32,000 nucleotides of DNA from Candidatus Nanohalobium constans. Lineage in GTDB: Archaea > Nanohalarchaeota > Nanosalinia > Nanosalinales > Nanosalinaceae. Location: NCBI RefSeq assembly GCF_009617975.1, contig NZ_CP040089.1, positions 330,001 to 362,000 of the forward strand. Reading direction: 5' to 3'. Below are positions 10,254 through 32,000 of this stretch, one piece after another. The stretch's first letter is position 1. Every line of letters begins with the position of its first letter. Both the position numbers and the translations under genes were made by a program. Below the pieces are notes generated by a model that saw only the letters and a list, made by a program, of their open reading frames with translations, was not told the DNA's origin and did no database searches.

Positions 10254-11599
10254 TATTGGTCACCTTTAGCGTTTACAGTCATTTTTCTCATGTCTCGTCC
10301 TCTGGTTCCCCATTGGTAGAGTTGGAATACTTCGTGAGGTTTTAGTGCTCGTTTGTAGATTCTGAGGTCGTCAATGTCGCCTGTGAAGTAGTTTCCGGAT
10401 GAGGTAGTGGTGTCAAATGTTCCGATGTTTAAGGGTTCTGAGGTTGATAATTTTCCTACAGCGGATATGTCTGCGGTGCCAGATAATGCGCCGTCAATGA
10501 ATAACAGGGTTTGGTTGCTTGATTTATCTACTACGAATGTGAAATGATGCCACGATGAATCGGCTATTTTTTTGTTTGAGGAAAGATCCACCTTATTTGA
10601 GCCATCATCCACTCTACAGTTCAGTGTATTATCGGAGTTAGCTCTCACAGAATATGTCTGATCGGCAAATCCCAGGAAATACTCAAACTCGCCTGACTGA
10701 GTGTATCTGAACCATCCAGACAAGGTAAAATCGGAATCTGATGGATAAAGCGATGAATCATTAGATACCTGCACATACTCATCAGATCCGTTAAACTGCA
10801 TAGCTTTCCCTCTAATCGAATTTGAGGTATACCCTGAGCTTGTGCCGCTTCCTCCATCATTACTTCCCCAAGAATCATTTACTGTGTCGTCAAATGTCCA
10901 TCTTGAGACTGCACCTGAATCGGAACTGTCATGTAAGCTTTGGTCTGTGTAGTCGCCGCTCCCCCATTCGTACAGTTTTTGTACTTCTTGAGGTGTTAGG
11001 GTTCGGTTGTAGAATCTTACGTCGCATATTTCTCCTGAGGCAGGGAAGCTTGCTGGTCGGTTTCCTATTCTGAATCTCCCGTTAAGTGAGAAATCTGAGT
11101 GGGATGAAATATCGCTTTGATCCACAAGTTCTCCATCCATATACAGATTAATCCTGTTCTCAGTCAGAGAGAAACAGAAGTGATGCCATTCATCAAAATA
11201 GTTTCCAGAGTCCTTAACCTCGGCAAAATTACTGTTGCCGTCATCGTAGTGAACTTGTGCTGCACCGGTATCAGATGTTCTAACAAACAAATAGGGTGTA
11301 TCGCCACTATCGGTGCTAGACAAAAACAAAATGTATCGATAATCGCTTGAGTCCATCTTAGCCCAGACAGAGAATGTCGAATTTTTGATGCTGTATTTTG
11401 AAGGCAGATTTATTCGAACATGCTGATCATTGGAATTATCGAAGCTATAAGCAGTTAGTCCTCCTTTACCTGCTACTCCTTGTGTAGGATATGTGGAGGT
11501 TGTGGATCCATCGCCAAGTGTTCCATGGTTGCCGTTTCCTGAAAGGTCGTTTGCTCGTCCATTGTTTTCATGTAGTGGCCACCATCCTGTAAGATTCAT
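10253..11599 (-). CDS. LamG protein, two tandem domains, no signal peptide
   Basis: Domain 1: WWPLHENNGRANDLSGNGNHG...AYSFDNSNDQHV...CDVRFYNRTLTPQEVQKLYEWG. Domain 2: RWTFDDTVNDSWGSNDG...AMQFNGSDEYVQV...IDDLRIYKRALKPHEVFQLYQWG. ATGA overlap with the upstream gene. Confidence 0.8.
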   Translation of the reverse strand: MNLTGWWPLHENNGRANDLSGNGNHGTLGDGSTTSTYPTQGVAGKGGLTAYSFDNSNDQHVRINLPSKYSIKNSTFSVWAKMDSSDYRYILFLSSTDSGDTPYLFVRTSDTGAAQVHYDDGNSNFAEVKDSGNYFDEWHHFCFSLTENRINLYMDGELVDQSDISSHSDFSLNGRFRIGNRPASFPASGEICDVRFYNRTLTPQEVQKLYEWGSGDYTDQSLHDSSDSGAVSRWTFDDTVNDSWGSNDGGSGTSSGYTSNSIRGKAMQFNGSDEYVQVSNDSSLYPSDSDFTLSGWFRYTQSGEFEYFLGFADQTYSVRANSDNTLNCRVDDGSNKVDLSSNKKIADSSWHHFTFVVDKSSNQTLLFIDGALSGTADISAVGKLSTSEPLNIGTFDTTTSSGNYFTGDIDDLRIYKRALKPHEVFQLYQWGTRGRDMRKMTVNAKGDQ

Positions 11600-13038
11600 T
11601 GCAGTGTATCACCTCTGCTGATTCTGTAAGCGCCTTTGTTGTACAGTTTTTCGATTTGGATTGGGTTGAGGACTTGGTTGTAGATTCGGACATCGTCAAC
11701 GTACCCTTTGTAGTGTGCGTTTCCGGTGTTGGATCCTATTGTTGAGGCTGCGGACAGGTCAGATACAGTGTTCTGTGTTTGAGACTGCTGATTCTCAAGA
11801 ATGCCATCTACATATATGGATGTAGTGCTGCCATCACTTGTCGAAACTACGTGATGCCAGTTACCGTCATTGACAGTTGTCTGAGATGAGATAATATCTG
11901 CAGAGCTGCCGGTATACGTTACACTGAATTTTCCGTTCCCATCTCTATTGACTCTGTGAACCCAGACTCCCTCTATCGATAGAGGGACAACATTTGTGCC
12001 TGTAGTCTCTGTTTTAATCCATTTGGAGATAGTTACGCTGCCGTCGCCGCTATCAAAGGCATTCTGCGGTAGTTCTACTTGGTCGTCACTTCCATCAAAC
12101 TCCTTTGCCTGATCATAGACCCCGTCAACAAATCCGGTGCTTGTACTGTCGGTGCCATCATTTTCTCCCCATGAATCATTTACTGAACCGTTTAATTTGT
12201 ATCTGCTGATTCCGCCCTGATTCTGACTAGGAACTTCTTGCCCAGTCCTTTTTATTCCACTTTGTACACCATTTCCGGAGTTGTACAATGCTTGTATTTC
12301 TGGTTCTGAAAGTGCTCGGTCGTAGATTCGTATATCGTCTATTTTTCCGTCATGGTAGGAACTTGGTCCGCTGCTTCCTTCTATAGCTCCTATCGCATCT
12401 ATTCTTCCTGATACTCCTTCGGTGTTGGAGGAGTTGGATTTTTTTACTTCTAGGGTATTGTTGATGTAGAGTTTTACATCTGGGTTGTCTCTTACTGCTA
12501 CTATGTGATACCAGGTTGATGCACTGGGAGATCTTCCGTTCAGCGTTGAGTTGTCTGATGATCCGAAATGAGTATATGTCAGTGAGTCTGTGCTGTTATC
12601 ATATCTTATGCTGATATTATTATTTGATAATGGGCATAGGAAGACTCTTTCTGAGGTCAGGTCACCGCAGTTTATCCATGCAGATATTGTATACTCGCCT
12701 CTCAGTGGAGGGATCTCGGTTTTTAGATTTACATAATCATCTGTTCCGTCGAAGCTTAGTGCGTTGTTCCCTGTATTGGAGTTGGCAGACCACATGTCAG
12801 AAGCAGAAGTGTTTGTTCCGTTGGTTCCTGGGTTAATCTGTCCATGATTTCCAGTGGCTCCGTCCAGCAAAACCTCTCCCTGCCCTTTCTCCATGGGGTA
12901 GTATGCTACTAATCCTCTGGTCAGGCTTCCGTGTTGATATCCTTGACTTAGTTTTCCGTTAGTGTCTATTCCGTCAGAGATTCCGGATGAGTCCTGTTCA
13001 TCTTTGAAGTCGTTGCTGTTCCATTTTAGTTTTACCAT
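11596..13038 (-). CDS. LamG protein, two tandem domains, no signal peptide
   Basis: Domain 1: AYYPMEKGQGEVLLDGATGNHG...ALSFDGTDDYVNL...IDDIRIYDRALSEPEIQALYNSG. Domain 2: RYKLNGSVNDSWGENDG...AKEFDGSDDQVEL...VDDVRIYNQVLNPIQIEKLYNKG. Confidence 0.8.
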   Translation of the reverse strand: MVKLKWNSNDFKDEQDSSGISDGIDTNGKLSQGYQHGSLTRGLVAYYPMEKGQGEVLLDGATGNHGQINPGTNGTNTSASDMWSANSNTGNNALSFDGTDDYVNLKTEIPPLRGEYTISAWINCGDLTSERVFLCPLSNNNISIRYDNSTDSLTYTHFGSSDNSTLNGRSPSASTWYHIVAVRDNPDVKLYINNTLEVKKSNSSNTEGVSGRIDAIGAIEGSSGPSSYHDGKIDDIRIYDRALSEPEIQALYNSGNGVQSGIKRTGQEVPSQNQGGISRYKLNGSVNDSWGENDGTDSTSTGFVDGVYDQAKEFDGSDDQVELPQNAFDSGDGSVTISKWIKTETTGTNVVPLSIEGVWVHRVNRDGNGKFSVTYTGSSADIISSQTTVNDGNWHHVVSTSDGSTTSIYVDGILENQQSQTQNTVSDLSAASTIGSNTGNAHYKGYVDDVRIYNQVLNPIQIEKLYNKGAYRISRGDTLQ

Positions 13039-13042
13039 TTTT

Positions 13043-13525
13043 CTACACTGAGAGTTCTATTGAGTTGATTTCTGCGGTTTTCTCCATGTTGGAGTTGGTT
13101 AGGGTTGTTTTGATCCAGTACTTGTTTCCTGTGCCGCCTTGTATGTTGCTTAGTGTGGTTGTGTTGGTTCCGTCGTTGATTGTTATTGTTTCTGTGTTGT
13201 CGGCTGTTCCGCTTCCGGTTGTGTCTTCGAATATTGTTATTTCTGCTGTCTGGCTGTTCAGTGTTGCGTCTACTGTTGCTGTAGGTCCGGTTGATGGTCC
13301 GGTTGTGGATATTGCCAGGATGTCGTTTGCTGTTTTGACTTTTACTGGTGTTGCATCTGAGTTTGAAGGGTCTACAAGGTTGAGTCCGCCGATCTCTGAA
13401 CCTACTTTGATTTTCAAGGACGGTGTTTCGGAGAAGTCGCTGAGTTGGTATACTGGCAGCTTTACTGGTGTTCCTGCTGATGTTTTCAAGCCGATTTCTC
13501 CGATTTTTCCCATTTTTTGGATCAC
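13043..13525 (-). CDS. hypothetical Thr/Ser-rich protein (160 aa), no signal peptide
   Basis: An ORF packed 4 nt upstream of the LamG gene and 7 nt downstream of the Tat-signal gene. The overlapping plus-strand ORFs (13065-13577, 13468-13899) look like shadow frames. No family recognised. Confidence 0.6.
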   Translation of the reverse strand: MIQKMGKIGEIGLKTSAGTPVKLPVYQLSDFSETPSLKIKVGSEIGGLNLVDPSNSDATPVKVKTANDILAISTTGPSTGPTATVDATLNSQTAEITIFEDTTGSGTADNTETITINDGTNTTTLSNIQGGTGNKYWIKTTLTNSNMEKTAEINSIELSV

Positions 13526-13532
13526 TTGTTAT

Positions 13533-13859
13533 TTATGCGCTGGAGTCGTACCAGATTTCTCCTTCTTCCGGATTTGAAGGGTCACCGTTCACTGTTGGCA
13601 GTTTCAATGTATCTGAGGATGACATGTCGGCGTTTGAGTTCATGACTACTTCTGTGTCAAACGTTGCTGGTCCACCGTCGGTTATATCGAACTCTGTGTT
13701 GCTGTCAGTTCCAAAGAACTTCAGGTCACTGCTTTTTATGTCGACTGCTGATGCAGGAAGCATTGAGAATGCTCCTACACCTGCTAATCCGAGCCCGGCT
13801 TTTTTCAGGAATTTTCTCCTGCTTATGTTTCCTTCAGCTTCTTCGTTTTCTTGTTTCAT
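13533..13859 (-). CDS. small secreted protein with a twin-arginine (Tat) signal peptide
   Basis: The N-terminus ...NISRRKFLKKAGLGLAGVGAFSMLPASAVD contains the consensus SRRxFLK, an h-region and an AxA-like site. The mature part is about 70 aa and ends LKLPTVNGDPSNPEEGEIWYDSSA. Confidence 0.75.
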   Translation of the reverse strand: MKQENEEAEGNISRRKFLKKAGLGLAGVGAFSMLPASAVDIKSSDLKFFGTDSNTEFDITDGGPATFDTEVVMNSNADMSSSDTLKLPTVNGDPSNPEEGEIWYDSSA

Positions 13860-13913
13860 AAATATCTTATACCTTTTTGTTGTGTTTTTCTTTGTTTAAT
13901 ATTCTTCCGTTTG

Positions 13914-14738
13914 TCAGCAGGTCTCGCCAAGACAGACAGGAGCATTTACTGGTTTAACCTCAGTTGTGTTTAATGTTCCGTCCATTGAATTGTTTTCTGT
14001 GTTCACATAGCCTTCTAAACTGCCTGTTGAGATGCTGCAGTTGTTGCCAAGACAGTTAAAGTCGATGCTATCTGTTTGAAGTGTTCCGGTCATGTTGTCT
14101 CCGGAACGGTTTACATACTTTTCAGTTCCACTTAGTTCAGAACCACTTGTCGAACTACATCCTTCTCCGATACAGATTGGTGTGCCGTCGCCTGATCGAA
14201 GAGATGACTGTATGTCCAGTGATTCCATCTCACCGCCTGATGTCAAGAGCTTCTCTATAACAACTTGGACTATCTTGATAGGTCCTTGAATCTGCCCAGA
14301 AGCTTCCAGATCTGTCAATCCTCCGGCGTCGTAAATTACACTTAAATCATAAGTGTTGCTCCCTTCAGAGCGTTCTACATTACTTAAGGTTATAGTGTCA
14401 GAGGCTCCGATAGGGACAGAAATTTGAGAGCTGTTTGAAGTCTTTAGAGTATTATTTGATGGATCAGAAATCTTTACTTCATTAACAGTTACATCCTCAG
14501 AAGCTGCAGCCCGTACACGCATCTGCAGATTTCCCTCTGAGGTAACACCGAAATCAGTTACCTCAATCTTTGAATCGGAAAGCCCAGAAACAGCCTCAAC
14601 GCCTCCTTGACTCTGGATAACTGAGAAAATCGCTCCGCCTACAACCGCAACTACAACAAGCATCCATCCATAAGTAGTCAAGTACTCAATCGCAGACTGT
14701 CCTTTACTAACTTCTCGACCTATAAAACCAGAAAACAT
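13914..14738 (-). CDS. archaeal type IV pilin-like protein (class III signal peptide) with a Cys-loop / GDxMxGxL C-terminal region
   Basis: The N-terminus ...REVSKG|QSAIEYLTTYGWMLVVVAVVGGAIF is a class III signal with Gln at +1. The C-terminus has PICIGEGC, KYVNRSGDNMTGTL, NCLGNNC, GYVNTENNSMDGTL, VCLGETC. Paralogue of 23458-24249. Confidence 0.75.
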   Translation of the reverse strand: MFSGFIGREVSKGQSAIEYLTTYGWMLVVVAVVGGAIFSVIQSQGGVEAVSGLSDSKIEVTDFGVTSEGNLQMRVRAAASEDVTVNEVKISDPSNNTLKTSNSSQISVPIGASDTITLSNVERSEGSNTYDLSVIYDAGGLTDLEASGQIQGPIKIVQVVIEKLLTSGGEMESLDIQSSLRSGDGTPICIGEGCSSTSGSELSGTEKYVNRSGDNMTGTLQTDSIDFNCLGNNCSISTGSLEGYVNTENNSMDGTLNTTEVKPVNAPVCLGETC

Positions 14739-19216: not shown

Positions 19217-19447
19217 ATGTCTAGGACTATTCGTGGTATTGATGATGAAACCTTCCGTGAGTTTAAGGCGAAGGCTCAGAAGGAAGGTAGAACTATTGGT
19301 GATGCGGTAACAGAGGCTATGTCTCAGTGGTTGAATGAGACGAAGGAAGATGTTTCTTTAGATGATATGGATGCATGGGACTGGGGAGAAGGAACTGAGA
19401 AACTAAGTGAGGAACACGAGGACGAACTATATGGCGAAACTGCTTGA
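19217..19447 (+). CDS. vapB: ribbon-helix-helix antitoxin (VapB-like)
   Basis: MSRTIRGIDDETFREFKAKAQKEGRTIGDAVTEAMSQWL is a beta-strand plus two-helix RHH pattern. An acidic tail follows. The gene overlaps the PIN gene by 17 nt. Confidence 0.7.
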   Translation: MSRTIRGIDDETFREFKAKAQKEGRTIGDAVTEAMSQWLNETKEDVSLDDMDAWDWGEGTEKLSEEHEDELYGETA

Positions 19448-19802
19448 TACAAGCTTCCTAATAGCCTATCACAATAAGAGAGACGAACATCATGATAGAG
19501 CTAGAGAGCTAAGGCCGGAAAAGATTGTGGTCAACGATTACATATACGCTGAAGTTTTAGATACCATTTACTCTTCCCAGGGAAAAAAGAAAGCAGTAAA
19601 TTACTCCAAGTTTCTAGAAAAATCAGCGAAAGTCATCCCAGTAACGCAACCAATAATGAAGAAAACGGTTCAAAATTTTCAGGAAAAAGATCTCAGCTTC
19701 ACAGACGCCTCAATAGCAGCCACTGCACAAAAACTAAATATGGATATAGTTTCCTTTGACAAAGACTTCGACCAATTCAAGGATGTAGAAAGGATTCACT
19801 GA
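19431..19802 (+). CDS. vapC: PIN-domain toxin (VapC-like)
   Basis: MAKLLDTSFLIA..., SFTDASIAA and VSFDKDF supply the conserved acidic residues of PIN domains. The start at 19431 fits better than the track's 19407. Confidence 0.8.
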   Translation: MAKLLDTSFLIAYHNKRDEHHDRARELRPEKIVVNDYIYAEVLDTIYSSQGKKKAVNYSKFLEKSAKVIPVTQPIMKKTVQNFQEKDLSFTDASIAATAQKLNMDIVSFDKDFDQFKDVERIH

Positions 19803-23417: not shown

Positions 23418-23457
23418 CTGAGTTAAATAAACGAGTGAATCTAATTCTAGGTTGTTG

Positions 23458-24249
23458 ATGAGTAGTAGGCTTGGACAGTCGGGTGTTGAGTACTTAGCTA
23501 CTTATGGCTGGATGGCTGTAGCAGTCACAGTTGCAGGGGCGGCACTTTATCCGAGTTTGAATACTGGTTGTAATGTTCAGCTTGACGGCGATATCAGAAC
23601 CGGAGGGTTGGCAATTGAACAAGTTGGAGCTGATAAGAACGGCACATTGAAGGTTATTTTCGACAGTGATACTAGGGAGAAACTTCAGGTGGAGTCTATA
23701 AGGCTTGAAGGGAGTGAGGACAGCTTGACTGTTGTACAGCCTCGGGAAATCTCTCCTGGCGGGGAAATTGCGTATAAAATAGGAGATGTCGAGAGAACAT
23801 CGGGCTGTGATACTTTTGATGCAGAGATAACCTTTGATAAAGGACCTCTTCAGAGCCAGAAGAAACAAATTGAGATATCTGCACCTTATGAACTGGTTAA
23901 AAGATTTCTTTCTCTTATCCGTACAAGAGGCGATAGTATTGAGCACCTTGAAGTAGATGCTTCAGTAAAACCAACGAATGAAACGATATGTGTAGGTTTA
24001 GGGTGTGGTATAACTGAAGGAGGCAACGCAACCGAGCCTGAAAAATATCTTAATTACAGTGGGGACAGCATGAGGGGTACTCTGAGAACAAACCGTTTTG
24101 ATTCGGTCTGCTACGGCGTGAAATGTGAGGAAAAAGGTGGAGACATTGAGGGATATGTTAACTCTAACGAAAGCTTCATGGCAGGCACACTTCGGTTGAC
24201 CGAACTGATGCCCAAAAATGATGATGAAAAGAAGATCCTGCTAAAGTAG
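23458..24249 (+). CDS. archaeal type IV pilin-like protein (class III signal peptide) with a Cys-loop / GDxMxGxL C-terminal region
   Basis: MSSRLG|QSGVEYLATYGWMAVAVTVAGAALY. The C-terminus has ICVGLGC, KYLNYSGDSMRGTL, VCYGVKC, GYVNSNESFMAGTL, collinear with 13914-14738. The ATG at 23458 is preferred to the TTG at 23452. TTAAATAAA lies at 23424-23432. Confidence 0.7.
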   Translation: MSSRLGQSGVEYLATYGWMAVAVTVAGAALYPSLNTGCNVQLDGDIRTGGLAIEQVGADKNGTLKVIFDSDTREKLQVESIRLEGSEDSLTVVQPREISPGGEIAYKIGDVERTSGCDTFDAEITFDKGPLQSQKKQIEISAPYELVKRFLSLIRTRGDSIEHLEVDASVKPTNETICVGLGCGITEGGNATEPEKYLNYSGDSMRGTLRTNRFDSVCYGVKCEEKGGDIEGYVNSNESFMAGTLRLTELMPKNDDEKKILLK

Positions 24250-24321
24250 CTACCGACACTTTCCTTCTCAAAAAGTATAAAATGTGTACAAAAACAAATT
24301 ACTCACAAGTGTATACTTAAG

Positions 24322-26016
24322 ATGCGTAAACTACTGATTTCAGCACTCATTTTAGCAACAGTAACATCGGCTTCAGCTGAGATAGACTTCAGATCAGACC
24401 AGCCGATAGACTTCTACAACCACATTGATTTGAACGACAACGAGATAAGACAGTTTTTTAACCAATCCTGCGGAGAAGACCAAGCAGTAAAAGACGTATA
24501 TAATAACGGATCATTCGAATGTGCGCCAGCAGGAGGATTAGACACTGCAGTAGAAGTTAACAATACTTTGATTAAGAATATTGACGCCAACGGCTACCAG
24601 ATAACTAATCTAGCCGATCCTGCATCCGTAACAGGAGACTCAGCTGCCAGGTGGAAAGACGTAGTCAGTATCGAAGGAGACACATTAAAAGGAAACCTCA
24701 ACCTGAACGGATACAACATTTCAGATGTAGATACACTTAAATTTCAGTCAGGATTCAGTATAAACGGCTCTCTGAATACTTCAGGAGGAAATGTAAACCT
24801 TGATAACGGTAGTATAAGCGATGTCTACGCAATTGACGGCGGAGGCGACGAAATCGACGTACTAGATCCAGTAGACCTGAACGGCAACCAACTGAGAAAC
24901 TCAGAAGGAAGACTTGAAATAGACGGTGCAGTATACCTGCCATCAGGGAACCTAGACATGGCAGGCAACAACCTCATAAACCCGGGAAACGTAGACGGAG
25001 TAGACCTAGACAATCCTGCAGAATCCCTGACGATAAAAAACAACAGATACCAAATAATAGCAAGCTCAATAGGTAACAACAAGCTAAATAACTCTCAAAG
25101 AATAACTGTAGATGGCTTAACAAGCACAGCAAATATCAACGCCACAGGAAACATATTGAAAGAAGTAAACAGCGTAGAAGGCTCAGGAAACCTTACACTC
25201 AGGTCAGAAGCATCAAACGGAGTGGTATTAGAGAAAGAAGATGGAACCCAAATACTGACGGCAGGAACAGCAAATGAAGAAGTGGCAATTCCCAACGGCG
25301 ATCTCGACATCGAAAACAACGGTTTAACGATAAGAGGAGGGGATGGAACAGATTACACACTCGGTCAGTTTGGCAACGGAATTGAAATATCCCGACAAGG
25401 TTCTGGAAACTCCGAACTAAATATAGAGCCAGGAGTCACAGAACTAGGATCCTCAAAGATTGAAATTGTAAGGGGAAACCTCGATCTTCAGGGCAACTCG
25501 ATTGTTGATTCCACCTCAAGCAATTCAATACCAATAGGAGATGGAACAGATGACTCAGTAACAATAAATGCCGGGGGCACAGGGCAGTACACAGTAAACA
25601 CAGGGGATAACTCAGGAAGCACAAAAAAGAGGCTTCAGATAACAGCAGACTCCAGCAAATCAGATATAGATATCCAGAATGCAAACCTAGATCTAAACAG
25701 CAATAAAATCAAAAACTACTATGGGTCAGCCTGTCCATCAGGAGAAACAGTAGTAAACATCAACAATGACGGCACATTTGACTGTGTCAGCATCGCAAAC
25801 GACGTATCGGATGTATACGTCAACAGGTCAGGAGACTCCCTGAAAGGAAATCTAGACATGCGCGGCAACGAACTACAAGATGTAGGGAAAGCAGGAATCA
25901 ACACAGCTAATCCACAAGAAGACCTAGATGTCGACGGAACAGCATCAGTACAAAACGCAGGAACAGAAATGAAAGTAGACTCAAACGGAAACGTAGTGGT
26001 GAGCCTAGGACAATGA
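24322..26016 (+). CDS. secreted fibre/beta-helix-like repeat protein (564 aa)
   Basis: Sec-type signal MRKLLISALILATVTSASA. Many GNL(D/N)(L/M)xGNxIxN repeats. Two Cys-bracketed modules and YVNRSGDSLKGNLDMRGNELQDVG. Confidence 0.75.
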   Translation: MRKLLISALILATVTSASAEIDFRSDQPIDFYNHIDLNDNEIRQFFNQSCGEDQAVKDVYNNGSFECAPAGGLDTAVEVNNTLIKNIDANGYQITNLADPASVTGDSAARWKDVVSIEGDTLKGNLNLNGYNISDVDTLKFQSGFSINGSLNTSGGNVNLDNGSISDVYAIDGGGDEIDVLDPVDLNGNQLRNSEGRLEIDGAVYLPSGNLDMAGNNLINPGNVDGVDLDNPAESLTIKNNRYQIIASSIGNNKLNNSQRITVDGLTSTANINATGNILKEVNSVEGSGNLTLRSEASNGVVLEKEDGTQILTAGTANEEVAIPNGDLDIENNGLTIRGGDGTDYTLGQFGNGIEISRQGSGNSELNIEPGVTELGSSKIEIVRGNLDLQGNSIVDSTSSNSIPIGDGTDDSVTINAGGTGQYTVNTGDNSGSTKKRLQITADSSKSDIDIQNANLDLNSNKIKNYYGSACPSGETVVNINNDGTFDCVSIANDVSDVYVNRSGDSLKGNLDMRGNELQDVGKAGINTANPQEDLDVDGTASVQNAGTEMKVDSNGNVVVSLGQ

Positions 26017-29000
26017 AAAACAAGAAAACAATTCTAACCTTAGCTTTAATCGCACTAACAGCAACAGTAACTGCCAGCGATTACATAATAGAAGACAGCA
26101 ACGGCGACAACCTCTTCGTAGTCAACGAAACAGGAGAAAAACAAATCCAGAACGGCAACCTATACCTCAACGGAAACAAGATAACTGATCAAGAAGGCAC
26201 ACTCACCTTAGACGGGGGGAACGTAGAAATACCTAACGGAAACCTAGATATCTCAAACAACGTCAAAGCTAACAGCTTCAATCTGAAGTCATCAAATTAT
26301 GCTATACGATATGATAGTGGAACCGACTCAATACAGTTCAGAGATACTCAAAACGGAGATAACGAACTATGGATAAGAAGAAACGGAGATGTCCAAATTC
26401 CCAACGGCAACCTAAACATGAACGAAAACCGGATAAATAACGTTGGAAGACTGGACCTAGGCTGGGCTAACCTAACAGACTATCCAAACGGCTGCGGTCC
26501 CGAAGAAGCAGTAAGAGTAATCGGCGACACACTAGACTGCGTCTCACTAGATCCAAGCGGATCAGTAGGCGGAGGCGGAGAAAAAGGAGAAATCGCCTTC
26601 TACATAGACGGAGAAAACATCACAGGCAGCAACAACCTATACTGGAACAACTCACAAACAAGACTAGGACTAGCAACAAGTAATCCCTCAGCAACCCTAG
26701 ATGTAAACGGAGACGCCCAAGTAAACGGTCAATTAAACCTAAAATCCAACGAAATAACCGGAATAACAAACCTAGAAGGAACAAACATCGTAAACAACAA
26801 CCAGATATCCTCAGGAGCAATATCAAAAAACAAGCTCTCAACCAATTCAGTGGGTATAAACGAACTTGACTCAACCACAGCAGGAGACGGACTATCTGGA
26901 GGAAGCGGATCAGCCCTATCAGTAAACACCGGAACAGGAATCACAACCAACTCCGACAAAGTACAAATAGACACAACCCTAGTACCACGTAAAAACACTG
27001 ACGAAACAATAACAGCAAACCAATGGACATACCAAAACGATGTACAGATAAGAGGAAACCTCGACGTCTGGGGAAATGTACAGAACACAGACGTATCCAA
27101 CCTAAACATCAACGGATCACTCCTACCACCATCAGGATACACCGACACATTCAACGTAGGAAGCTCCAGCCGAAGATGGAAAACAGGATACTTCCAAGAC
27201 ATAACCCTAGGAAACAACGCAATAGACAACTCAGAAATCACAAACACAGACATAACAATCAACGCAAACTCAGGTCTATCAGGAGGAGGAACAACCAACC
27301 TAGGAGGAAGCACAGGACTAAGCCACGCAGACACATCAAATATAGGAAACATCGACAACTCCGGAGGAACCATCATCCAAGACCTCAACTTTGACGGCTA
27401 CGGACACGTCACAGGACAAAACAGCTACAACCTAGACAACCGATACTACACAGAAACAGAATCCGACAGTAACTTTGTGGATGAGAGCGGAGATACAATG
27501 ACTGGACCTCTGAACATATCTGATAATGAAATTGAAGATGCTAGAGGTATAAGCTTCAGTAACAATGGTGATTCTGGCTATATTAGAGAATATAGTGGAG
27601 GAGCTTTAGCTATAAATAGTCAGGGTAATGCTCTTCGCCTACAAGATGATAATTCTCAATTGGTAAGTATAGAAAGTAGTCTAAATATGAATTCTAATCT
27701 AATCAATAATTTCTTCGGCAGTAACTGTGCCTCTGATGAAGTAGTTGAAAGTGTTAACTCGGATGGTACCTACAACTGTAAATCAATCACTGGAACAGCC
27801 GATGACACATACGTAAATGAAGGTGGAGACACCATGACGGGAGCCCTTGATATGAGCGGCAATAATGTACAGAATGTAGGAACGATAAACGCCTCAACAA
27901 TCCAAGAAAACGGAAACGACATCGGCGGTCTATTCGTTGATGAATCAGGAGACTCAATGAGCGGAAGCCTCAACATGCAAGGACATCATGTAGACAATCT
28001 GAACTATCTTGACTTGAATTCTGAAGGACAAATTCAGACAGATGGAACAGACGCAATCAGATTCGATGGCAGTCAGAACATTGAGATTCCAAACGGAAAC
28101 CTAAATATCCGTAACGGAGGCATGATTAGTTTCACTAACGATGATTATATTGGACATGAGGGGAACGATATTAGGATGGAAACAGGTAGGAATATGAGGC
28201 TGGTTATAGACGGTGAAGGTGGTGGCGAGAGTTACCATGATTTAGAGGTGAGAAATTCTAATGGAGATAATTTGCTGGATGTGAGCCCGAATGGAAATAT
28301 TCAGATTCCTAATGGCTATCTGGACATGAACTCTAATGATATCAGGAACCTGGAGACTCCTGATTCTGGGACTGATGCTGCTACGAAGGATTATGTTGAT
28401 GCTCAGACTGGAGATGCTGAATCCGGGGCTACGCAGACTTTAAGCCAGGTGCTGTCTGAAGGTAATGATGCTGGTAGTCAGGCTATAACGAGTATTGGTT
28501 CTGGTAATATTGATATTGATGGTAGTGGTTCTGGTAATATCCAGTTGAATAATGAGGAGGTTAGAGGTGGTAGTATTACACAGTCGAACAACTTGATTGC
28601 TGGTTCTTACAGTACTGGTGAGTCCAGTGTTGATGGCGGTGATGTCTGGGTTGAGAACGATGTAGAGGTCGGTGGAGATATTGTTGGTTCTGGAGCGGAT
28701 GTTGCCGAGAAGATCAACAATGAATCCCAGCTAGAACCTGGTACGGTGGTAACTATCTCAGGTAATAACAGTGTTGACAAGACTCAAGGAAAACATGATA
28801 GAATGGTTGCAGGAGTAGTTTCAACCGATCCAGCAATGGTGATGGCTAAGGAAAGAGACGGGGTACCGATCGCTATGACTGGAACAGTACCGGTCAAAGT
28901 CACGATGGAGAACGGAGAAATTAAACCAGGAGACATGTTAACAACATCCTCCGCTGCCGGTAAGGCTATGAAGTGTCAAGACCTGACAAAATGCACAGGC

Positions 29001-29072
29001 TCAATCATAGGAAAAGCATTAGAACCAGCAGAAAAAACCTCTAAAATCAATATGCTTATCTCGATGAGTTAA
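26013..29072 (+). CDS. secreted giant fibre protein (1019 aa) with a tail-fibre-like tip
   Basis: ATGA overlap with the upstream gene. Signal MKNKKTILTLALIALTATVTASD. Three GDxMxGxL motifs. IRNLETPDSGTDAATKDYVD. C-terminal block GVVSTDPAMVMAKERDGVPIAMTGTVPVKVTMENGEIKPGDMLTTSSAAGKAMK. Confidence 0.75.
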   Translation: MKNKKTILTLALIALTATVTASDYIIEDSNGDNLFVVNETGEKQIQNGNLYLNGNKITDQEGTLTLDGGNVEIPNGNLDISNNVKANSFNLKSSNYAIRYDSGTDSIQFRDTQNGDNELWIRRNGDVQIPNGNLNMNENRINNVGRLDLGWANLTDYPNGCGPEEAVRVIGDTLDCVSLDPSGSVGGGGEKGEIAFYIDGENITGSNNLYWNNSQTRLGLATSNPSATLDVNGDAQVNGQLNLKSNEITGITNLEGTNIVNNNQISSGAISKNKLSTNSVGINELDSTTAGDGLSGGSGSALSVNTGTGITTNSDKVQIDTTLVPRKNTDETITANQWTYQNDVQIRGNLDVWGNVQNTDVSNLNINGSLLPPSGYTDTFNVGSSSRRWKTGYFQDITLGNNAIDNSEITNTDITINANSGLSGGGTTNLGGSTGLSHADTSNIGNIDNSGGTIIQDLNFDGYGHVTGQNSYNLDNRYYTETESDSNFVDESGDTMTGPLNISDNEIEDARGISFSNNGDSGYIREYSGGALAINSQGNALRLQDDNSQLVSIESSLNMNSNLINNFFGSNCASDEVVESVNSDGTYNCKSITGTADDTYVNEGGDTMTGALDMSGNNVQNVGTINASTIQENGNDIGGLFVDESGDSMSGSLNMQGHHVDNLNYLDLNSEGQIQTDGTDAIRFDGSQNIEIPNGNLNIRNGGMISFTNDDYIGHEGNDIRMETGRNMRLVIDGEGGGESYHDLEVRNSNGDNLLDVSPNGNIQIPNGYLDMNSNDIRNLETPDSGTDAATKDYVDAQTGDAESGATQTLSQVLSEGNDAGSQAITSIGSGNIDIDGSGSGNIQLNNEEVRGGSITQSNNLIAGSYSTGESSVDGGDVWVENDVEVGGDIVGSGADVAEKINNESQLEPGTVVTISGNNSVDKTQGKHDRMVAGVVSTDPAMVMAKERDGVPIAMTGTVPVKVTMENGEIKPGDMLTTSSAAGKAMKCQDLTKCTGSIIGKALEPAEKTSKINMLISMS

Positions 29073-29075
29073 AAA

Positions 29076-30272
29076 ATGAAATACGGGGTCTTAGAGGCAG
29101 CAACCGCAGCAGCAATAATCGCCACATCAGTCTCACTGCTGTACACGCCGCCAGAACCGAGCTGGGAGACAGAAGTAGTAGCCAACGATACTTATGGGAA
29201 GTTTGTGGAAGTAGATTCTTATGGAAGCAATGTAGGAATTGCATATGTAGACTCGATTGACACAGGGTTGAGGCTGGCAGAGAAAAGCTACTCGACCTCA
29301 ATCACCGATTTCTCAGCTCAGAGAAAGGGGAACTGGGATACACAGGTAATAGATAATAGATCAGAGACAGGGATGTATCCATCACTGGAGTCAAAGAGCG
29401 GTCAACCGTCGATTTCATACCAAGATGGAGACCTAGGAAATGAAAAACTGTACTACGCAAATAGGCAGAACGGTGAATGGAACAGGACAGAAGTCGATAA
29501 TGTTGTAGGAGGTGGAACCTCCGTAGGAATGTACTCCTCACTCAACTTCCACCAAAGCAAACCTGTAATATTTTACCACTCACCTTCTCAAGGGCTGAAA
29601 ATGGCTGAGAAAAAACAGGAATGGAGCAAAGAAATACTTGAGGACGGACAGGGATGGTATACAGAGACATCGAAATGCGGGAACACGATAAAAGTAGCCT
29701 ATACAGGCAGAAACTCTGAACAGTTAAAGATAGGAGAATACGACGGAGGTTGGAGTTCAGAAAACACCTCAACCAAGATAAAATCAGACCTCGACATCGA
29801 CACAGATCAACGATGCGATGAACAACTAGCATACCTAGACACCGAAACAGAACAGATAACCTACAAAGACCAAGATTCAAGGACATTCGGTGATGCATTC
29901 TTCACAAGACTAGCTCTTACATCAAAAGGAAATACTACACATCTAGTATACCACGATGAAGGAACAGGTCTAAAATATGCAAAGAAAAAAGATGGAGAAT
30001 GGACGACCAAAACAATAAAACAAGGCTCAGAAACAGGAGAGTACAACGACATAGAAATCGACCACATAGGAAACATCCACACGGCTTACACAAGCCAAAA
30101 AAAAGTATACCACACAGTATACAACAAAGGAACCACACAAAAGATACAGTCAAAAACTGATGAAGTGAAGATTGGACTAGGATTGATATCAGCACTACTA
30201 CTCATATTCACAGCAATTAGACAGGAAGTAATAGCTAAAATAATCCAGAAAATAGGTGAGATCCAGAGATGA
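29076..30272 (+). CDS. membrane protein with about seven propeller-like repeats, hydrophobic helices at both ends
   Basis: Starts 4 nt after the fibre gene. N-terminal AATAAAIIATSVSLLY and C-terminal IGLGLISALLLIFTAI. Seven repeats of about 45-50 aa, of the type TGMYPSLESKSGQPSISYQDGDLGNEKLYYANRQNGEWNRTEVD. Confidence 0.7.
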   Translation: MKYGVLEAATAAAIIATSVSLLYTPPEPSWETEVVANDTYGKFVEVDSYGSNVGIAYVDSIDTGLRLAEKSYSTSITDFSAQRKGNWDTQVIDNRSETGMYPSLESKSGQPSISYQDGDLGNEKLYYANRQNGEWNRTEVDNVVGGGTSVGMYSSLNFHQSKPVIFYHSPSQGLKMAEKKQEWSKEILEDGQGWYTETSKCGNTIKVAYTGRNSEQLKIGEYDGGWSSENTSTKIKSDLDIDTDQRCDEQLAYLDTETEQITYKDQDSRTFGDAFFTRLALTSKGNTTHLVYHDEGTGLKYAKKKDGEWTTKTIKQGSETGEYNDIEIDHIGNIHTAYTSQKKVYHTVYNKGTTQKIQSKTDEVKIGLGLISALLLIFTAIRQEVIAKIIQKIGEIQR

Positions 30273-30297
30273 AAGATAAGGTGGTCGGGTAGAATAC

Positions 30298-30303
30298 TTT
30301 TTT
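30298..30303 (+). terminator. T6 tract after the fibre/propeller operon
   Basis: ACTTTTTTG lies 26 nt after the stop at 30272 and is followed by a 226-nt gap. Confidence 0.35.
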
Positions 30304-30498
30304 GATCAGAATTGTTCAAACGAGCAGTGTTATCTGGGAATAAGGATCAGATATTTGAGCAAGTATTAATTTTATCATTGACTCAGGAATTAATAGTCCT
30401 TATCAGCAAATAAAAAATAGTGAAGTTATCATCTTTGTTTGTTTCAGTCAAATGAGATATCATGGGATTTTTTATCCTAAATCTTCAAATTTAAGTCT

Positions 30499-31065
30499 GT
30501 GGTAGATAGAAAGCTGAAGAGATGGGTTGAGCAGCAGTTGGATAAAGGGGAATCACGTGAAGTAATACAGAAAGCTTTAGAGAATAAGGGCTATGATCCT
30601 TCGATAGTAGATGAAGTTGAAGAAGAGGAGGTTAGTTCAAGTATCTCCATCAATTCTGAGGATAAAATCAGAAAAATATCTTTAGGTGTAGAGAAGGGTA
30701 TTGAAGGAGCATCTGAAATCCGTGTTAAACAAGTGATAATCCTTTCGACCATATTAACAGCTTTATTTCTAGGATTATACTTTCAGCCATTTGCCACAGA
30801 CAAAAAAACATCAGAAGAACCTGCAACAGTAACCTTGGGAAAAGTCTCTGCCAATCCGGCAACAGCTACAATCAACCGTACTGATGCTGTTAAATTCAGG
30901 AACAATGCGTCACATTCGTTCAAGGTAAGTTTTGACAGGAATATCTCTTCTTTCAGCATTCAACCCGGTAGTTCTGTGGTCAGGAATTTTAACAGAACCA
31001 CTTATTATGATGCCGACCCATTGGATGATGGACGTACAATTAAGGGAAGTATCTATACTCCTTGA
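30499..31065 (+). CDS. bitopic membrane protein: small N-terminal helical domain, TM helix, cupredoxin-like C-terminal domain
   Basis: The GTG start is supported by alignment with the paralogue (VDRKLKRWVEQQLDKGESREVIQKALENKGYDPSIVDEV against EDSNIRKWIEKELRNGENPRELKEALLEEGYKPSIVDEV). TM helix VIILSTILTALFLGLYF. TTTTTTATCC lies about 25-33 nt upstream. Confidence 0.6.
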   Translation: MVDRKLKRWVEQQLDKGESREVIQKALENKGYDPSIVDEVEEEEVSSSISINSEDKIRKISLGVEKGIEGASEIRVKQVIILSTILTALFLGLYFQPFATDKKTSEEPATVTLGKVSANPATATINRTDAVKFRNNASHSFKVSFDRNISSFSIQPGSSVVRNFNRTTYYDADPLDDGRTIKGSIYTP

Positions 31066-31109
31066 ACACAAGGAACTATTTTTTATTCGAACTTTGACAC
31101 AAAAGAATT

Positions 31110-31748
31110 ATGGAGGATTCAAACATCCGGAAATGGATCGAAAAAGAATTGAGAAACGGAGAGAATCCTCGTGAACTCAAGGAAGCACTTCTGGAAGAAG
31201 GCTACAAACCATCAATAGTAGACGAAGTAAAACAAGAAACAAACCATGAAAAAACGACAAACAATACAGAAGAAATTAAACAAAAAATACAGAAAAGCGA
31301 AACAATAACCGAAAAACTCGAAAAAGAGATAAAGAAAGAATGGAAACCAAGGCTAGCTATAATCATAGTCATAGCAACAGTAGCAACAGGAACAATTCTA
31401 GCAACACCAATAACAAACACAATAAACAACACAGATAAACCTATCCAGGAAAAAACCGGGCAGACCGACCAAACAGAAAAACAAAACAAGGCAGGAAACA
31501 CCACCACAATCAAACTCTCTAATGGTGTAGCCAAGCCATCAAGACCATCAATAACGCCAGAAGAAAACATAAAATTCCAAAACAAAGAAAACTACAAAAT
31601 GAAGATAGTATTCGAATCAGAAAAAGAAAACCTGCAGATACCCGCCCAAGACTCCAAAACAACAAACCTTAACTCACTGACATACTACACTGCAAAACCC
31701 GCAGAAACCACTGCAGAACAAATATCAGGATCCATAATAGTCCAGTAA
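31110..31748 (+). CDS. paralogue of 30499-31065 (N-terminal helical domain, TM, cupredoxin-like domain)
   Basis: Same architecture. TM helix LAIIIVIATVATGTILA. C-terminal ...IKFQNKENYKMKIVF...LTYYTAKPAETTAEQISGSIIVQ. ATTTTTTATT lies about 25-33 nt upstream. Confidence 0.65.
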   Translation: MEDSNIRKWIEKELRNGENPRELKEALLEEGYKPSIVDEVKQETNHEKTTNNTEEIKQKIQKSETITEKLEKEIKKEWKPRLAIIIVIATVATGTILATPITNTINNTDKPIQEKTGQTDQTEKQNKAGNTTTIKLSNGVAKPSRPSITPEENIKFQNKENYKMKIVFESEKENLQIPAQDSKTTNLNSLTYYTAKPAETTAEQISGSIIVQ

Positions 31749-31834
31749 AAACACTCTCAACCATCAAACACCTCCAACTCAAGAAAAATAGTTTAAACCA
31801 GCAACCAAAAAACATTCAACAGGAACAGATATCC

Positions 31835-32000
31835 TTGAAACCAAAAAGTACAAAGATACTTACAACACTTTTCTCACTTCTAATACTGACAGGAATAGCC
31901 ACAGCCACCGACCTACAAAACATAGAATCAATAACACCTCTAGGATCACAAAACATTAATGTCAACGGAACACTAGACCTAAACAATAACAACCCAATCC
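31835..32000 (+). CDS. start of another secreted fibre-repeat protein (3' end outside the window)
   Basis: Hand translation from the TTG at 31835 gives (M)KPKSTKILTTLFSLLILTGIATATDLQNIESITPLGSQNINVNGTLDLNNNNPI. It has a signal peptide and the first GxLDLNxN repeat. TTTAAACC lies at 31792-31799. The start codon is uncertain. Confidence 0.45.
   Translation, partial: MKPKSTKILTTLFSLLILTGIATATDLQNIESITPLGSQNINVNGTLDLNNNNPI

Follow-up and report, generated by a model that had tools for sequence, protein, structure and literature searches.

Genes and features of the locus

We analysed a 32,000-nucleotide (nt) stretch of the genome of Candidatus Nanohalobium constans LC1Nh (genome positions 330001-362000; this whole stretch is called the window below), and in particular the run of genes at its right end, LC1Nh_0415 to LC1Nh_0421, every one of which is annotated as 'hypothetical protein' in the published genome. 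A preliminary description of this DNA had presented the run as a pilin-led locus of secreted fibre proteins with a propeller-like membrane protein and twin cupredoxin-like membrane proteins. Calling of open reading frames (ORFs) found each of the frames listed there in place and on the plus strand. The features of the locus are given below; coordinates here and throughout are window positions, with window base 23452 corresponding to genome position 353452.

23452 (TTG start, GenBank; 265 aa) or 23458 (ATG start, RefSeq; 263 aa) to 24249, plus strand: LC1Nh_0415, pilin-like (ORF call)
24322-26016, plus strand: LC1Nh_0416, fibre 1, 564 aa (ORF call)
26013-29072, plus strand: LC1Nh_0417, fibre 2, 1019 aa (ORF call; 100% identical to QGA80318.1)
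27318-27557, plus strand: phage tail-fibre module within fibre 2, aa ~436-515 (homology segments)
28695-29069, plus strand: C-terminal domain of fibre 2, aa 895-1019, phi29-gp12-like (Peptidase_G2-like), with A895-D896-V-A-E899 at 28695-28709
29076-30272, plus strand: LC1Nh_0418, propeller (arCOG02510 of the genome authors), 398 aa (ORF call, AlphaFold2)
30298-30303, plus strand: T6 tract, candidate archaeal oligo-T terminator (putative function), 26 nt past the propeller stop (read directly)
30499-31065, plus strand: LC1Nh_0419 (cupA), cupredoxin-like, 188 aa (ORF call)
31110-31748, plus strand: LC1Nh_0420 (cupB), paralogue of LC1Nh_0419, 212 aa (ORF call)
31835-32000, plus strand: 5' end of LC1Nh_0421, fibre 3 (gene continues to window-equivalent 33433; 532 aa) (ORF and annotation table)

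Direct reading of the sequence showed that the fibre 1 and fibre 2 genes share an ATGA overlap at 26013-26016, and that a 3-nt gap separates the fibre 2 stop codon from the propeller gene, the start codon of which lies 4 nt past the last stop base. Behind the propeller gene come the T6 tract, two tandem paralogues that are 30% identical, and the signal-peptide and fibre ORF that leaves the window, which is LC1Nh_0421; all of these arrangements had been noted in the preliminary description. Scans of six whole products against Pfam, NCBIfam and PHROGs gave nothing usable except an unnamed PHROG at the C-terminus of fibre 2, and the homologies reported here surfaced only in scans of single domains or of family alignments. 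For comparison between genomes we used the window, eight longer related loci (L001-L008), and four short contigs with distant propellers (L089, L090, L091/92, and L093/94).

Phage tail-fibre modules in the secreted fibres

Hydropathy profiles of the fibres show one N-terminal hydrophobic stretch each and none elsewhere, in agreement with the earlier view of fibres that have signals of the general secretory (Sec) type and no membrane anchor. Fibre 1 has a Sec signal peptide (MRKLLISALILATVTSASA|E), repeats rich in N, G, S, and D, and two Cys-hairpin motifs; its C-terminal ~85 aa are conserved, with peak conservation at aa 481-564 across the orthologues in L002 and L005-L008. In fibre 2 the Sec signal peptide (..ATVTA|SDY) is followed by a conserved mature N-terminus, DYIIxDSxGNxLFVVNxTGEKQ, and by variable middle segments, and fibre 3 combines a Sec signal peptide with two GDxMxGxL motifs. 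A repeat of the form G[ND]L[DN][LM]xxNx[IL] occurs in 4 copies per fibre, whereas 500 shuffles gave 0.15-0.26 copies on average and never more than 2-3.

A homology search with fibre 2 returned ~13 nanohaloarchaeal orthologues and some 50 metagenome proteins that bear Peptidase_S74, Mtd_N, BppL_N, Phage_T4_gp36, Phage_fiber_2, or collagen domains. These metagenome relatives match two discrete parts of fibre 2, namely aa ~436-515 and the C-terminal ~125 aa. The first part, a tail-fibre module with the motif HxDTS..NSGGT(V/I)IQD..(F/L)DxYGHVTG..LDxRYYTExExDxxFVxxxGDTMTGxL, is 62-69% identical to metagenome proteins with Peptidase_S74, Mtd_N, Phage_T4_gp36, or Phage_fiber_2 domains. When scanned alone, fibre 2 aa 426-515 gave two matches (4.8e-8 and 3.3e-7) to PHROG families annotated 'long tail fiber protein distal subunit'. 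Of 19 homologous segments, 16 match such families likewise; weaker PHROG tail-fibre matches were obtained for fibre 2 aa 570-700 and for fibre 3. Fibre 1 has a module in common with fibre 2, and the closing hallmark of the tail-fibre module, FVxxxGDTMTGxL, recurs in fibres 1 and 3 and is present in two copies in each pilin-like protein. Searches of the PDB, whether with the single fibre 1 and fibre 2 sequences or with a tail-fibre-module profile, gave no match.

By these sequence homologies, the fibres descend from phage tail fibres and would be domesticated derivatives of them, a point absent from the preliminary description. They share the RYYTExExD..FV..GDTMTGxL module with phage long tail fibres (T4 gp36/gp37, T5 pb1, K1F endosialidase; PHROGs 21722 and 11011; Peptidase_S74, Mtd_N, BppL_N), which are likewise modular and variable in length and end in a C-terminal folding domain. 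Fibre 2 differs from these in its cellular context, in a chaperone domain of the gp12 type rather than the S74 type (see below), and in a signal peptide plus DYIIxDS that replace the virion-attachment domain: the archaeal orthologues of fibre 2 all open with a Sec signal peptide, whereas the phage-like relatives open with Mtd_N-type N-termini. The idea that the fibres were taken from haloviruses was not supported, because a tblastn search of cultured phages matched only jumbo Pseudomonas phages and Roseobacter phage CRP-118, the latter to the tail-fibre module, with no haloarchaeal virus among the matches.

Given such clear phage homologies, together with toxin-antitoxin genes at the borders of the locus and a GC dip to 0.37 at 30-32 kilobases (kb), we asked how far the fibre genes could be provirus leftovers, that is, the remnant of an integrated virus or tailocin. 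The 32-kb window plus 5 kb of flank hold no virion genes (capsid, portal, terminase, sheath, tube, or baseplate) and no integrase gene, and Rfam and tRNA scans of the window gave no match. Each archaeal copy carries a Sec signal peptide in place of the virion-attachment domain, the order fibre-fibre-propeller-cupredoxin-like-fibre is kept in genomes with a GC content of 34-60%, housekeeping genes adjoin the locus (ileS, cysS, ftsZ, and RLI lie in the window), and expression in co-culture is high and constitutive. A provirus or tailocin origin of the present locus was therefore rejected as highly improbable.

Three further observations concern the fibres. The identity of the module at aa 436-515 (62-69%) far exceeds that of the rest of fibre 2, which suggests recent exchange or very strong constraint. 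The isoelectric points of the phage-like relatives gave no discrimination of their habitat. Fibres 1 and 2 each contain two Cys...Cys hairpins of 16-18 residues with the pattern C-x3-5-[EQD]-x-V-x-G-x-C (e.g. CPSGETVVNINNDGTFDC), the second of which lies ~10 residues before a GDxMxGxL motif in each fibre; they are probably disulfide-bonded extracellular structural elements. Their positions are as follows.

24470-24523 and 25732-25785, plus strand: Cys-hairpin motifs of fibre 1
26493-26540 and 27726-27779, plus strand: Cys-hairpin motifs of fibre 2

The C-terminal domain of fibre 2

The C-terminal domain is the best-conserved part of fibre 2, with a column identity of 74-77% compared with 10-16% in the variable segments and a pairwise identity of 50-84% among nanohaloarchaea. 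Pfam Peptidase_G2 (PF11962) was matched by 7 of 23 aligned family members (best 8.2e-7), and the family profile matched one PDB chain through GADYAE..GVVS (E = 0.002). An AlphaFold2 model of the domain is disordered to residue 33 and ordered from A-D-V-A-E on, with block means of the predicted local distance difference test (pLDDT) mostly above 80 (one block at 75). With this model, Foldseek returned the C-terminal fragment of phi29 gp12 (3gqh_A; template modelling (TM) scores of 0.56/0.55 and a root mean square deviation (rmsd) of 3.3) and 3suc (rmsd 3.8). In our alignment of the domain (A2), residues A36, D37, A39, and E40 of the A-D-x-A-E motif are nearly invariant, and distant archaeal copies show SG(A/G)D(V/L)AE at this point. 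IMG/VR contains at least 576 relatives of the domain. All 41 viral ORFs that we checked are long and carry it at their extreme C-terminus, with the stop 3-18 aa past the match, and a [YF]ADLAE-type motif is visible at the domain start in most of these copies; 9 nanohaloarchaeal orthologues have the domain in the same extreme C-terminal position.

By sequence and by model, this part of fibre 2 thus resembles a trimerisation or intramolecular chaperone domain of the phi29 gp12 type. In phi29 gp12, the C-terminal domain is an auto-chaperone that drives folding of the trimer and is then cleaved off (PMC3357383, PMC4690869). Fibre 2 and gp12 (3SUC, 3GQH) are alike in the C-terminal place of the domain on a long beta fibre or spike, in its beta fold, and in the A-D-x-A-E boundary; fibre 2 differs in that it stays below the Pfam thresholds, is predicted to be exported by Sec and to fold outside the cell, and has no detected beta-helix enzyme domain. 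By analogy with gp12, fibre 2 probably cleaves itself at A-D-x-A-E.

Recruitment of a phage C-terminal trimerising and self-cleaving domain into a cellular protein is also known from MYRF (PMC3742443), which differs from fibre 2 in that its domain is of the S74 rather than the gp12 type and in that it is a eukaryotic membrane transcription factor acting in intracellular signalling. With the YadA family of trimeric autotransporter adhesins the likeness is one of analogy only: these too are long, secreted, beta-rich fibres, as fibre 2 probably is in trimeric form, in which a C-terminal domain drives trimerisation. Fibre 2 has no beta-barrel anchor and archaea have no outer membrane; the membrane-anchored element would here be the separate propeller.

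The distinction bears on published annotations. Reva et al. 2023 (PMC10266531) described a region of Ca. Nanohalococcus occultus SVXNc as a LamG operon with a 'trimeric autotransporter adhesin-like' protein and an R-type pyocin knob protein, and proposed it as a host-recognition determinant. This surface-protein 'operon' is the orthologous locus L001, in which the 1692-aa protein P0021 is orthologous to fibre 2 and shares its C-terminal domain. The autotransporter label does not fit, since fibre 2 has no YadA_anchor or other Pfam match, a faint YadA_head occurs only in divergent relatives, and the C-terminus is gp12-like. La Cono et al. placed LC1Nh_0417 in their list of 'strain-specific secreted proteins' and reported a PKD domain in it, as stated in the supplement of the genome paper; our Pfam scan found no PKD domain in LC1Nh_0417 at E <= 0.1. 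Two literature annotations are thereby corrected.

A membrane-anchored propeller coupled to the fibre gene

For LC1Nh_0418, AlphaFold2 on an 11-sequence alignment predicted 28 strands that form seven four-stranded blades between aa 30 and 349 (pLDDT 87.6, predicted TM score 0.84), and AlphaFold2 and Foldseek agree on a seven-bladed beta-propeller, as the preliminary description had suspected from the repeats. The model places an N-terminal hydrophobic helix (3-22) and a C-terminal transmembrane helix (351-397) with a basic tail on either side of the propeller, and hydropathy of the 398-aa protein gives hydrophobic stretches at 3-24 and 361-391, so the helices at both ends that had been noted earlier are present. 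Since the basic tail comes after the C-terminal transmembrane helix, the propeller should lie outside the membrane; the N-terminal helix, with an h-region of ~20 residues and no A-x-A site, is more likely an uncleaved anchor than a signal peptide. A doubly membrane-anchored propeller is thus plausible from the sequence. It had been taken for the only anchored product of the locus, which does not hold, because both cupredoxin-like proteins have a transmembrane helix and the pilin-like protein has an N-terminal helix.

A fibre gene that ends in a gp12-like domain lies directly upstream of the propeller gene in all loci with upstream sequence (12/12), with a gap of 2-13 nt or a 4-nt overlap, and these 12 loci range from 34 to 60% in GC content and from 605 to ~150 bits in propeller profile score. 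In L007 there is no propeller with transmembrane anchors; instead, a divergent fibre with the same C-terminal domain precedes, with a 4-nt overlap, a WD40 propeller (Pfam WD40 3e-28) that has a twin-arginine translocation (Tat) signal and occurs as three tandem paralogues. L005 holds both kinds of pair, one with a transmembrane propeller and one with a Tat-exported WD40 propeller. The two pairs of the second kind, both with propellers of ~430 aa, lie at

L007:14422-18350: divergent chaperone-domain fibre and WD40 propeller, 4-nt overlap
L005:18880-20187: divergent chaperone-domain fibre and WD40 propeller, 4-nt overlap

From the 12/12 pairing and the WD40 pairs of L007 and L005, the recurring unit is a chaperone-domain fibre plus an extracytoplasmic propeller. 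This is strong genetic evidence that fibre and propeller are functionally linked, and it is specifically the fibre with the C-terminal domain that is linked, a narrower statement than the earlier notion of a membrane base for the fibres in general. Of that notion, the propeller, its extracytoplasmic topology, and its coupling to the fibre gene stand, and the propeller may also be a 'base' for the fibres. The cassette is present in relatives of both low and high GC content and may therefore be shared by a broader group of small archaea.

The gene order beyond the pair is also conserved. A gene for a bitopic cupredoxin-like protein follows the propeller gene in most of the long loci, sometimes past an inserted LamG gene and sometimes as a pair, and a fibre 3-type gene comes next (orthologues in L001, L003, L008, and L093). 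The order fibre-fibre-propeller-cupredoxin-like-fibre is kept in genomes over the GC range of 34-60%, and in a relative with 64% identity the locus occupies the corresponding position, behind cysS, a NUDIX gene, and ribE. The SVXNc paper (PMC10266531) is silent on the propeller, on the chaperone domain, and on the cupredoxin-like protein and does not describe the constant pairing of fibre and propeller, and we found no other paper that mentions any of these. We know of no counterpart of the propeller gene beside phi29 gp12. As a side observation, the WD40 propellers of L005 and L007 have their Tat-type signal after an unusually long and highly acidic N-terminal extension, as does LC1Nh_0422, a gene beyond the window.

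In the PDB, Foldseek matched the propeller to generic propellers only, with a probability of 1.0 for many of them at ~10% identity, query-normalised TM scores of 0.45-0.59, and target-normalised scores of up to 0.69; a single-sequence PDB search gave chance-level matches only (E >= 0.23). The viral models likewise returned generic propellers only, so there is no sign that the propeller arrived from a virus together with the fibre. An exhaustive profile search showed that the blade repeat is common to thousands of large surface proteins, and the repeat is part of a large family of otherwise unnamed archaeal or bacterial surface repeats; ~30 clusters (50% identity) keep the build of 370-460 aa with hydrophobic helices at both ends, and none of them matches a Pfam family.

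The nearest structures of the propeller are a Bacteroides glycoside hydrolase, Photorhabdus fucose lectins, and sialidases. These would accord with a different reading of the locus, in which the fibres are released tailspike-like enzymes or soluble lectins that act on host or substrate polysaccharide and the propeller works separately, as a membrane protein that binds or hydrolyses glycans. Many phage tailspikes with a chaperone domain are depolymerases, the symbiosis rests on polysaccharide use, and the secretome contains fibres and propeller in amounts like those in biomass; phi29 gp12 and the endosialidases, too, are enzymes (PMC3357383, PMC4690869). However, scans against Pfam, NCBIfam, PHROG, and PDB sequences detected no catalytic or carbohydrate-active domain in any fibre. 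The propeller shares the overall seven-bladed fold with the Photorhabdus PLL-family lectins and sialidase-like propellers but no binding-site motif, its structural matches contain no conserved active-site signature, and unlike them it is anchored at both ends. Moreover, the strict coupling of the genes, with overlapping start and stop codons, points to a common complex, and the secretome is contaminated with cytoplasmic proteins. We therefore consider enzymes or soluble lectins a rather improbable explanation.

Expression and transcription units

Published proteome data of the chitin co-culture (bioRxiv 10.1101/794461, Supplementary Data 2) gave the following numbers of peptides in biomass and secretome.

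LC1Nh_0415, pilin-like: biomass 0, secretome 0
LC1Nh_0416, fibre 1: biomass 20, secretome 12
LC1Nh_0417, fibre 2: biomass 29, secretome 31
LC1Nh_0418, propeller: biomass 10, secretome 19
LC1Nh_0419 and LC1Nh_0420, cupredoxin-like: biomass 0, secretome 0
LC1Nh_0421, fibre 3: biomass 19, secretome 21
LC1Nh_0422, Tat-signal protein: biomass 6, secretome 4
LC1Nh_0423, LamG lectin: biomass 17, secretome 37
LC1Nh_0029, S-layer protein (for comparison): biomass 10, secretome 21

Fibre 1, fibre 2, the propeller, fibre 3, and the LamG protein were thus each represented by 10-37 peptides, which is comparable to the S-layer protein LC1Nh_0029. Reading the intergenic sequence by eye, we noted three TATA-like elements: one at 23423-23431 (TTAAATAAA), ~25 nt ahead of the pilin gene, a second ~45 nt ahead of fibre 1, and a third ~25 nt ahead of LC1Nh_0419. 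A hairpin with a T-run follows LC1Nh_0419, in addition to the T6 tract after the propeller; both kinds of element are putative in function. Their placement suggests the transcription units pilin, fibre 1-fibre 2-propeller, cupA, cupB, and fibre 3. A scan for sigma-70 promoters and intrinsic terminators gave sites no more numerous than in shuffles, as expected for an archaeon.

Cupredoxin-like proteins

LC1Nh_0419 is a bitopic protein with an N-terminal helical cytoplasmic domain of ~45 aa, a transmembrane segment at 73-99, and a C-terminal cupredoxin-like beta domain of ~85 aa, and LC1Nh_0420 has the same architecture at 30% identity. The preliminary description of twin membrane proteins is borne out by these two paralogues with one internal transmembrane helix each; the fold label is marginal, since a 5-sequence profile matched more than 20 plastocyanins over the first strands only (best E = 0.0016) and Pfam Cupredoxin_1 was matched by 2 of the 5 sequences at E = 0.1. 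Neither paralogue contains a cysteine and hence neither can have a blue-copper site; the His of the plastocyanin 'PHN' aligns with Leu, Phe, or Met. With the copper ligands absent, true blue-copper proteins were discarded as a candidate. Orthologues of LC1Nh_0419 stand behind the propeller in L001, L003, L004, L006, L008, and L093, and the pair of a shorter and a longer gene is also present in L006 and L008, so the cupredoxin-like genes are conserved members of the locus across related loci and not a separate afterthought behind a terminator.

Pilin-like proteins

The N-terminus of LC1Nh_0415, R-L-G-Q|S-G-V-E-Y-L, is class-III-signal-like and is followed by a ~20-aa hydrophobic helix (stretch 14-33), a globular middle, and a Cys-rich C-terminus with two copies of the fibre motif Y(V/L)NxSGDxMxGTL. 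Alignment inspection and hydropathy showed the traits of a class III signal (charged N-terminus, G/A at -1, ~20-aa helix, and Glu at +5), and GQSxxEYLxTYGWM is invariant in 4 paralogues and orthologues, with Glu at +5 if the cut is after Gly. Pilin 1 (KGQSAI) presumably fits the FlaFind-type pattern, and pilin 2 (RLGQSGV) is without a charged residue at -2. Scans of the whole pilin-like proteins gave no Pfam, NCBIfam, or PHROG match, nor did the six isolated N-termini match Pfam at E <= 10, and only 6 relatives of LC1Nh_0415 were found among 5.8 billion proteins. LC1Nh_0415 is like archaeal type IV pilins (EppA-/PibD-processed, DUF361-like) in its short charged N-terminus, Gly-Gln, ~20-residue helix, Glu at +5, and remote assembly genes; it is unlike them in that no profile recognises it, in its large C-terminal extension with phage-fibre motifs, and in being undetected in the proteome.

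This likeness raises the possibility that the pilin-like protein is a minor pilin of a FlaI/FlaJ-type machinery, that the fibres sit on a type IV pilus-like filament or stub, and that the propeller is an accessory. The window contains no assembly ATPase, platform protein, or prepilin peptidase; as anticipated in the preliminary description, the machinery lies elsewhere, with FlaI/FlaJ (LC1Nh_0350/0351) and a second VirB11-type ATPase (LC1Nh_0941) in the genome annotation, among the listed entries of which there was no prepilin peptidase. In keeping with a place at the pilus tip, the N-terminal motif is invariant, the C-terminus bears the GDxMxGTL motif of the fibres, pilin-like genes precede the fibre genes in three loci (the window, L002, and L003), clusters of 4-5 class-III-signal proteins flank the fibre locus in L005, L007, and L008, and pili-like filaments were seen on the cells (genome paper). 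On the other hand, the signals of the fibres are Sec and not class III, separate TATA-like elements precede the pilin gene and fibre 1, zero pilin-like peptides contrast with abundant fibres, L001 and L006 have LamG instead of a pilin-like gene upstream, and the invariant partner of the fibre is the propeller (12/12 loci), not the pilin. We regard the pilus-tip arrangement as unlikely, somewhat less so than the enzyme or lectin reading. Accordingly, the term 'pilin-led' overstates the part of this protein; what stands of it is the class-III-like N-terminus and the upstream position in three loci; the protein has no profile, its own TATA-like element, no peptides, and no counterpart in several orthologous loci. 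The association with the fibres is real but loose, since related genomes carry divergent class-III-signal clusters next to their fibre genes.

Among the orthologues, that of L003 (L003:4618-5745, 375 aa) contains an inserted segment resembling a PKD domain (..YNWSFGDGNTAKGKTVTHNYSQPGIYN..). The divergent clusters of 4-5 small class-III-signal-like proteins beside the fibre genes lie at L005:421-3632, L007:1434-6503, and L008:2611-7737 (minus strand); one of their members has a weak DUF7289 match, and another is a LamG protein of 746-761 aa with a pilin-like N-terminus.

A probable role in host attachment and a proposed route of fibre assembly

With the provirus, enzyme, and pilus-tip explanations weighed above, the reading that we favour, and hold to be on balance the probable one, is that of a chromosomal, expressed cell-surface fibre locus of an ectosymbiont, in which domesticated phage-type fibres with a propeller partner most likely bind the envelope of the haloarchaeal host. 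The cluster is a strong candidate for the host-attachment device of N. constans. A role in attachment, suggested in the preliminary description, is in line with proposals in the genome paper for LC1Nh_0417 and the LamG proteins, which La Cono et al. regarded as likely host-interaction factors. Only the giant SPEARE proteins and LamG lectins have so far been proposed as nanohaloarchaeal host-attachment candidates, and the present locus adds expressed candidates in a cultivated co-culture (LC1Nh_0416, LC1Nh_0417, LC1Nh_0418, and LC1Nh_0421). It also offers an evolutionary rationale, in that the symbiont would use the same kind of fibre by which viruses find cells. What is new here is a cellular use of phage tail-fibre modules that are exported by Sec and have a propeller as their dedicated partner, in a DPANN system that is in cultivation.

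How such fibres might be assembled can be sketched as follows. In phage fibres of this kind, folding takes place in the cytoplasm and begins at the C-terminal chaperone domain, from which it proceeds to the N-terminus. A chain exported by Sec emerges unfolded and with its N-terminus first, and three such chains would otherwise drift apart. Fibres 1, 2, and 3 would be exported unfolded via Sec, with a cleavable signal peptide in place of the virion-attachment N-terminal domain of phages, and would reach their folded form outside the cell, as elongated fibres of beta structure that are probably trimers. The gp12-type domain of fibre 2 would nucleate trimerisation from the C-terminus and probably then cut itself off at A-D-x-A-E. 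The propeller, tethered to the outer side of the membrane, could catch the C-terminal domains, which emerge last, close to the translocon, and so counter the dilution of the three chains, and/or keep the finished fibre on the cell; capture of the C-terminal domain would explain the constant pairing and translational coupling of the chaperone-domain fibre and the propeller. After folding, either self-cleavage would release the mature fibre or a retained C-terminal domain would anchor it. The conserved mature N-terminus (DYIIxDS) is a second candidate docking site, and the variable middle segments are candidates for host specificity. The cupredoxin-like, pilin-like, and Tat-signal proteins and the LamG lectins would be further conserved members of the surface module, and the assembled structure would most likely recognise and bind the haloarchaeal host envelope.

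The more far-reaching form of this proposal, in which the fibre with the gp12-like domain and the extracytoplasmic propeller are a conserved two-gene machine that builds phage-type trimeric fibres outside the cell by docking, templating, and then retention or release, is put forward tentatively, as an idea with clearly less than even chances. If true, organisms that have no outer membrane would possess a hitherto undescribed way of assembling trimeric adhesins, and the locus would be the long-sought host-recognition device of nanohaloarchaea and related DPANN, with the variable segments setting host range as in phage. The mechanism can be tested in two parts, self-cleaving trimerisation and a dedicated membrane propeller.

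Several points weigh against this interpretation. Fibre 2 itself does not match PF11962, either whole at E <= 0.1 or as an isolated domain at E <= 1; the structural match to the gp12 fragment is moderate (TM score 0.56); and Foldseek also returned trimeric phage decoration proteins with E-values as good as those of gp12 or better. With the Pfam threshold unmet, the TM score moderate, and decoration proteins scoring equally, 'trimerisation domain' is a safer term than 'protease'. The Asp and Glu of A-D-x-A-E are the presumed catalytic pair in gp12 (MEROPS family G2), and the release of phi29 gp12 is reportedly ATP-dependent, which would be unworkable outside the cell. The published proteomics is not at peptide level and is therefore silent on cleavage of fibre 2. 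Fibres 1 and 3 are without the chaperone domain, and the model leaves their folding unexplained. Physical contact between fibre and propeller is hypothetical, and the propeller could bind glycans rather than the fibre, given that its structural neighbours include lectins and sialidases. Finally, presence in the secretome is no proof of a surface location, because the secretome also holds cytoplasmic proteins such as RadA.

Right flank and a paralogous first module

The right flank beyond the window was taken from the annotation table of the preprint. It contains LC1Nh_0421, then LC1Nh_0422 (209 aa, with a twin-arginine signal after a long acidic extension) and LC1Nh_0423 (a 982-aa LamG lectin), and PIN/VapC genes on the opposite strand after LC1Nh_0423 mark the end of the locus. 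Extended in this way by fibre 3, a Tat-signal protein, and a LamG lectin, the locus mirrors an earlier module of the window at 9588-14738, which comprises

13914-14738, minus strand: LC1Nh_0404, pilin-like
13533-13859, minus strand: LC1Nh_0403, Tat-signal protein
13043-13525, minus strand: LC1Nh_0402
11596-13038, 10253-11599, and 9588-10253, minus strand: LC1Nh_0401, LC1Nh_0400, and LC1Nh_0399, LamG lectins

The pilin-like proteins of the two modules are 31% identical and the Tat-signal proteins LC1Nh_0403 and LC1Nh_0422 42% identical, and LamG lectins close both, so that two paralogous surface modules can be recognised, as the preliminary description had proposed. Both have the pilin-like protein, the Tat-signal protein, and the LamG lectins, and the second adds the insert of fibres, propeller, and cupredoxin-like proteins.

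The LamG lectins of both modules (9588-13038; LC1Nh_0423) begin at once with the LamG domain (MxLxGWWxL...), without a signal peptide ahead of it; nevertheless, 25-37 secretome peptides were recorded for them. In both modules, a small twin-arginine-signal protein adjoins the lectins (13533-13859; LC1Nh_0422/0423 at genome 363469-367056), and tatA/tatC lie ~10 genes downstream. Export of folded LamG lectins by Tat 'hitch-hiking' is a possibility.

Other observations

In several genomes, toxin-antitoxin genes (PIN/VapC, RHH, ParE) repeatedly border the surface-protein loci or lie within them; the sites are as follows.

19407-19802, plus strand, in the window
LC1Nh_0424-0427, beyond the window
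L002:267-763
L005:12555-13149
L007:19840-21918

At window positions 30001-32000 the GC content is 0.37 (0.40-0.47 elsewhere) and the plus strand has a strong A-over-T skew; this stretch spans the 3' half of cupA, cupB, and the start of fibre 3, and cupB is rich in K/N/T/E low-complexity sequence. At the other end of the window, a 5'-truncated ORF on the plus strand (24-2219) encodes VWA and CARDB domains and is probably a further surface protein; its hydrophobic C-terminal tail after PGIGF resembles a PGF-CTERM archaeosortase signal.

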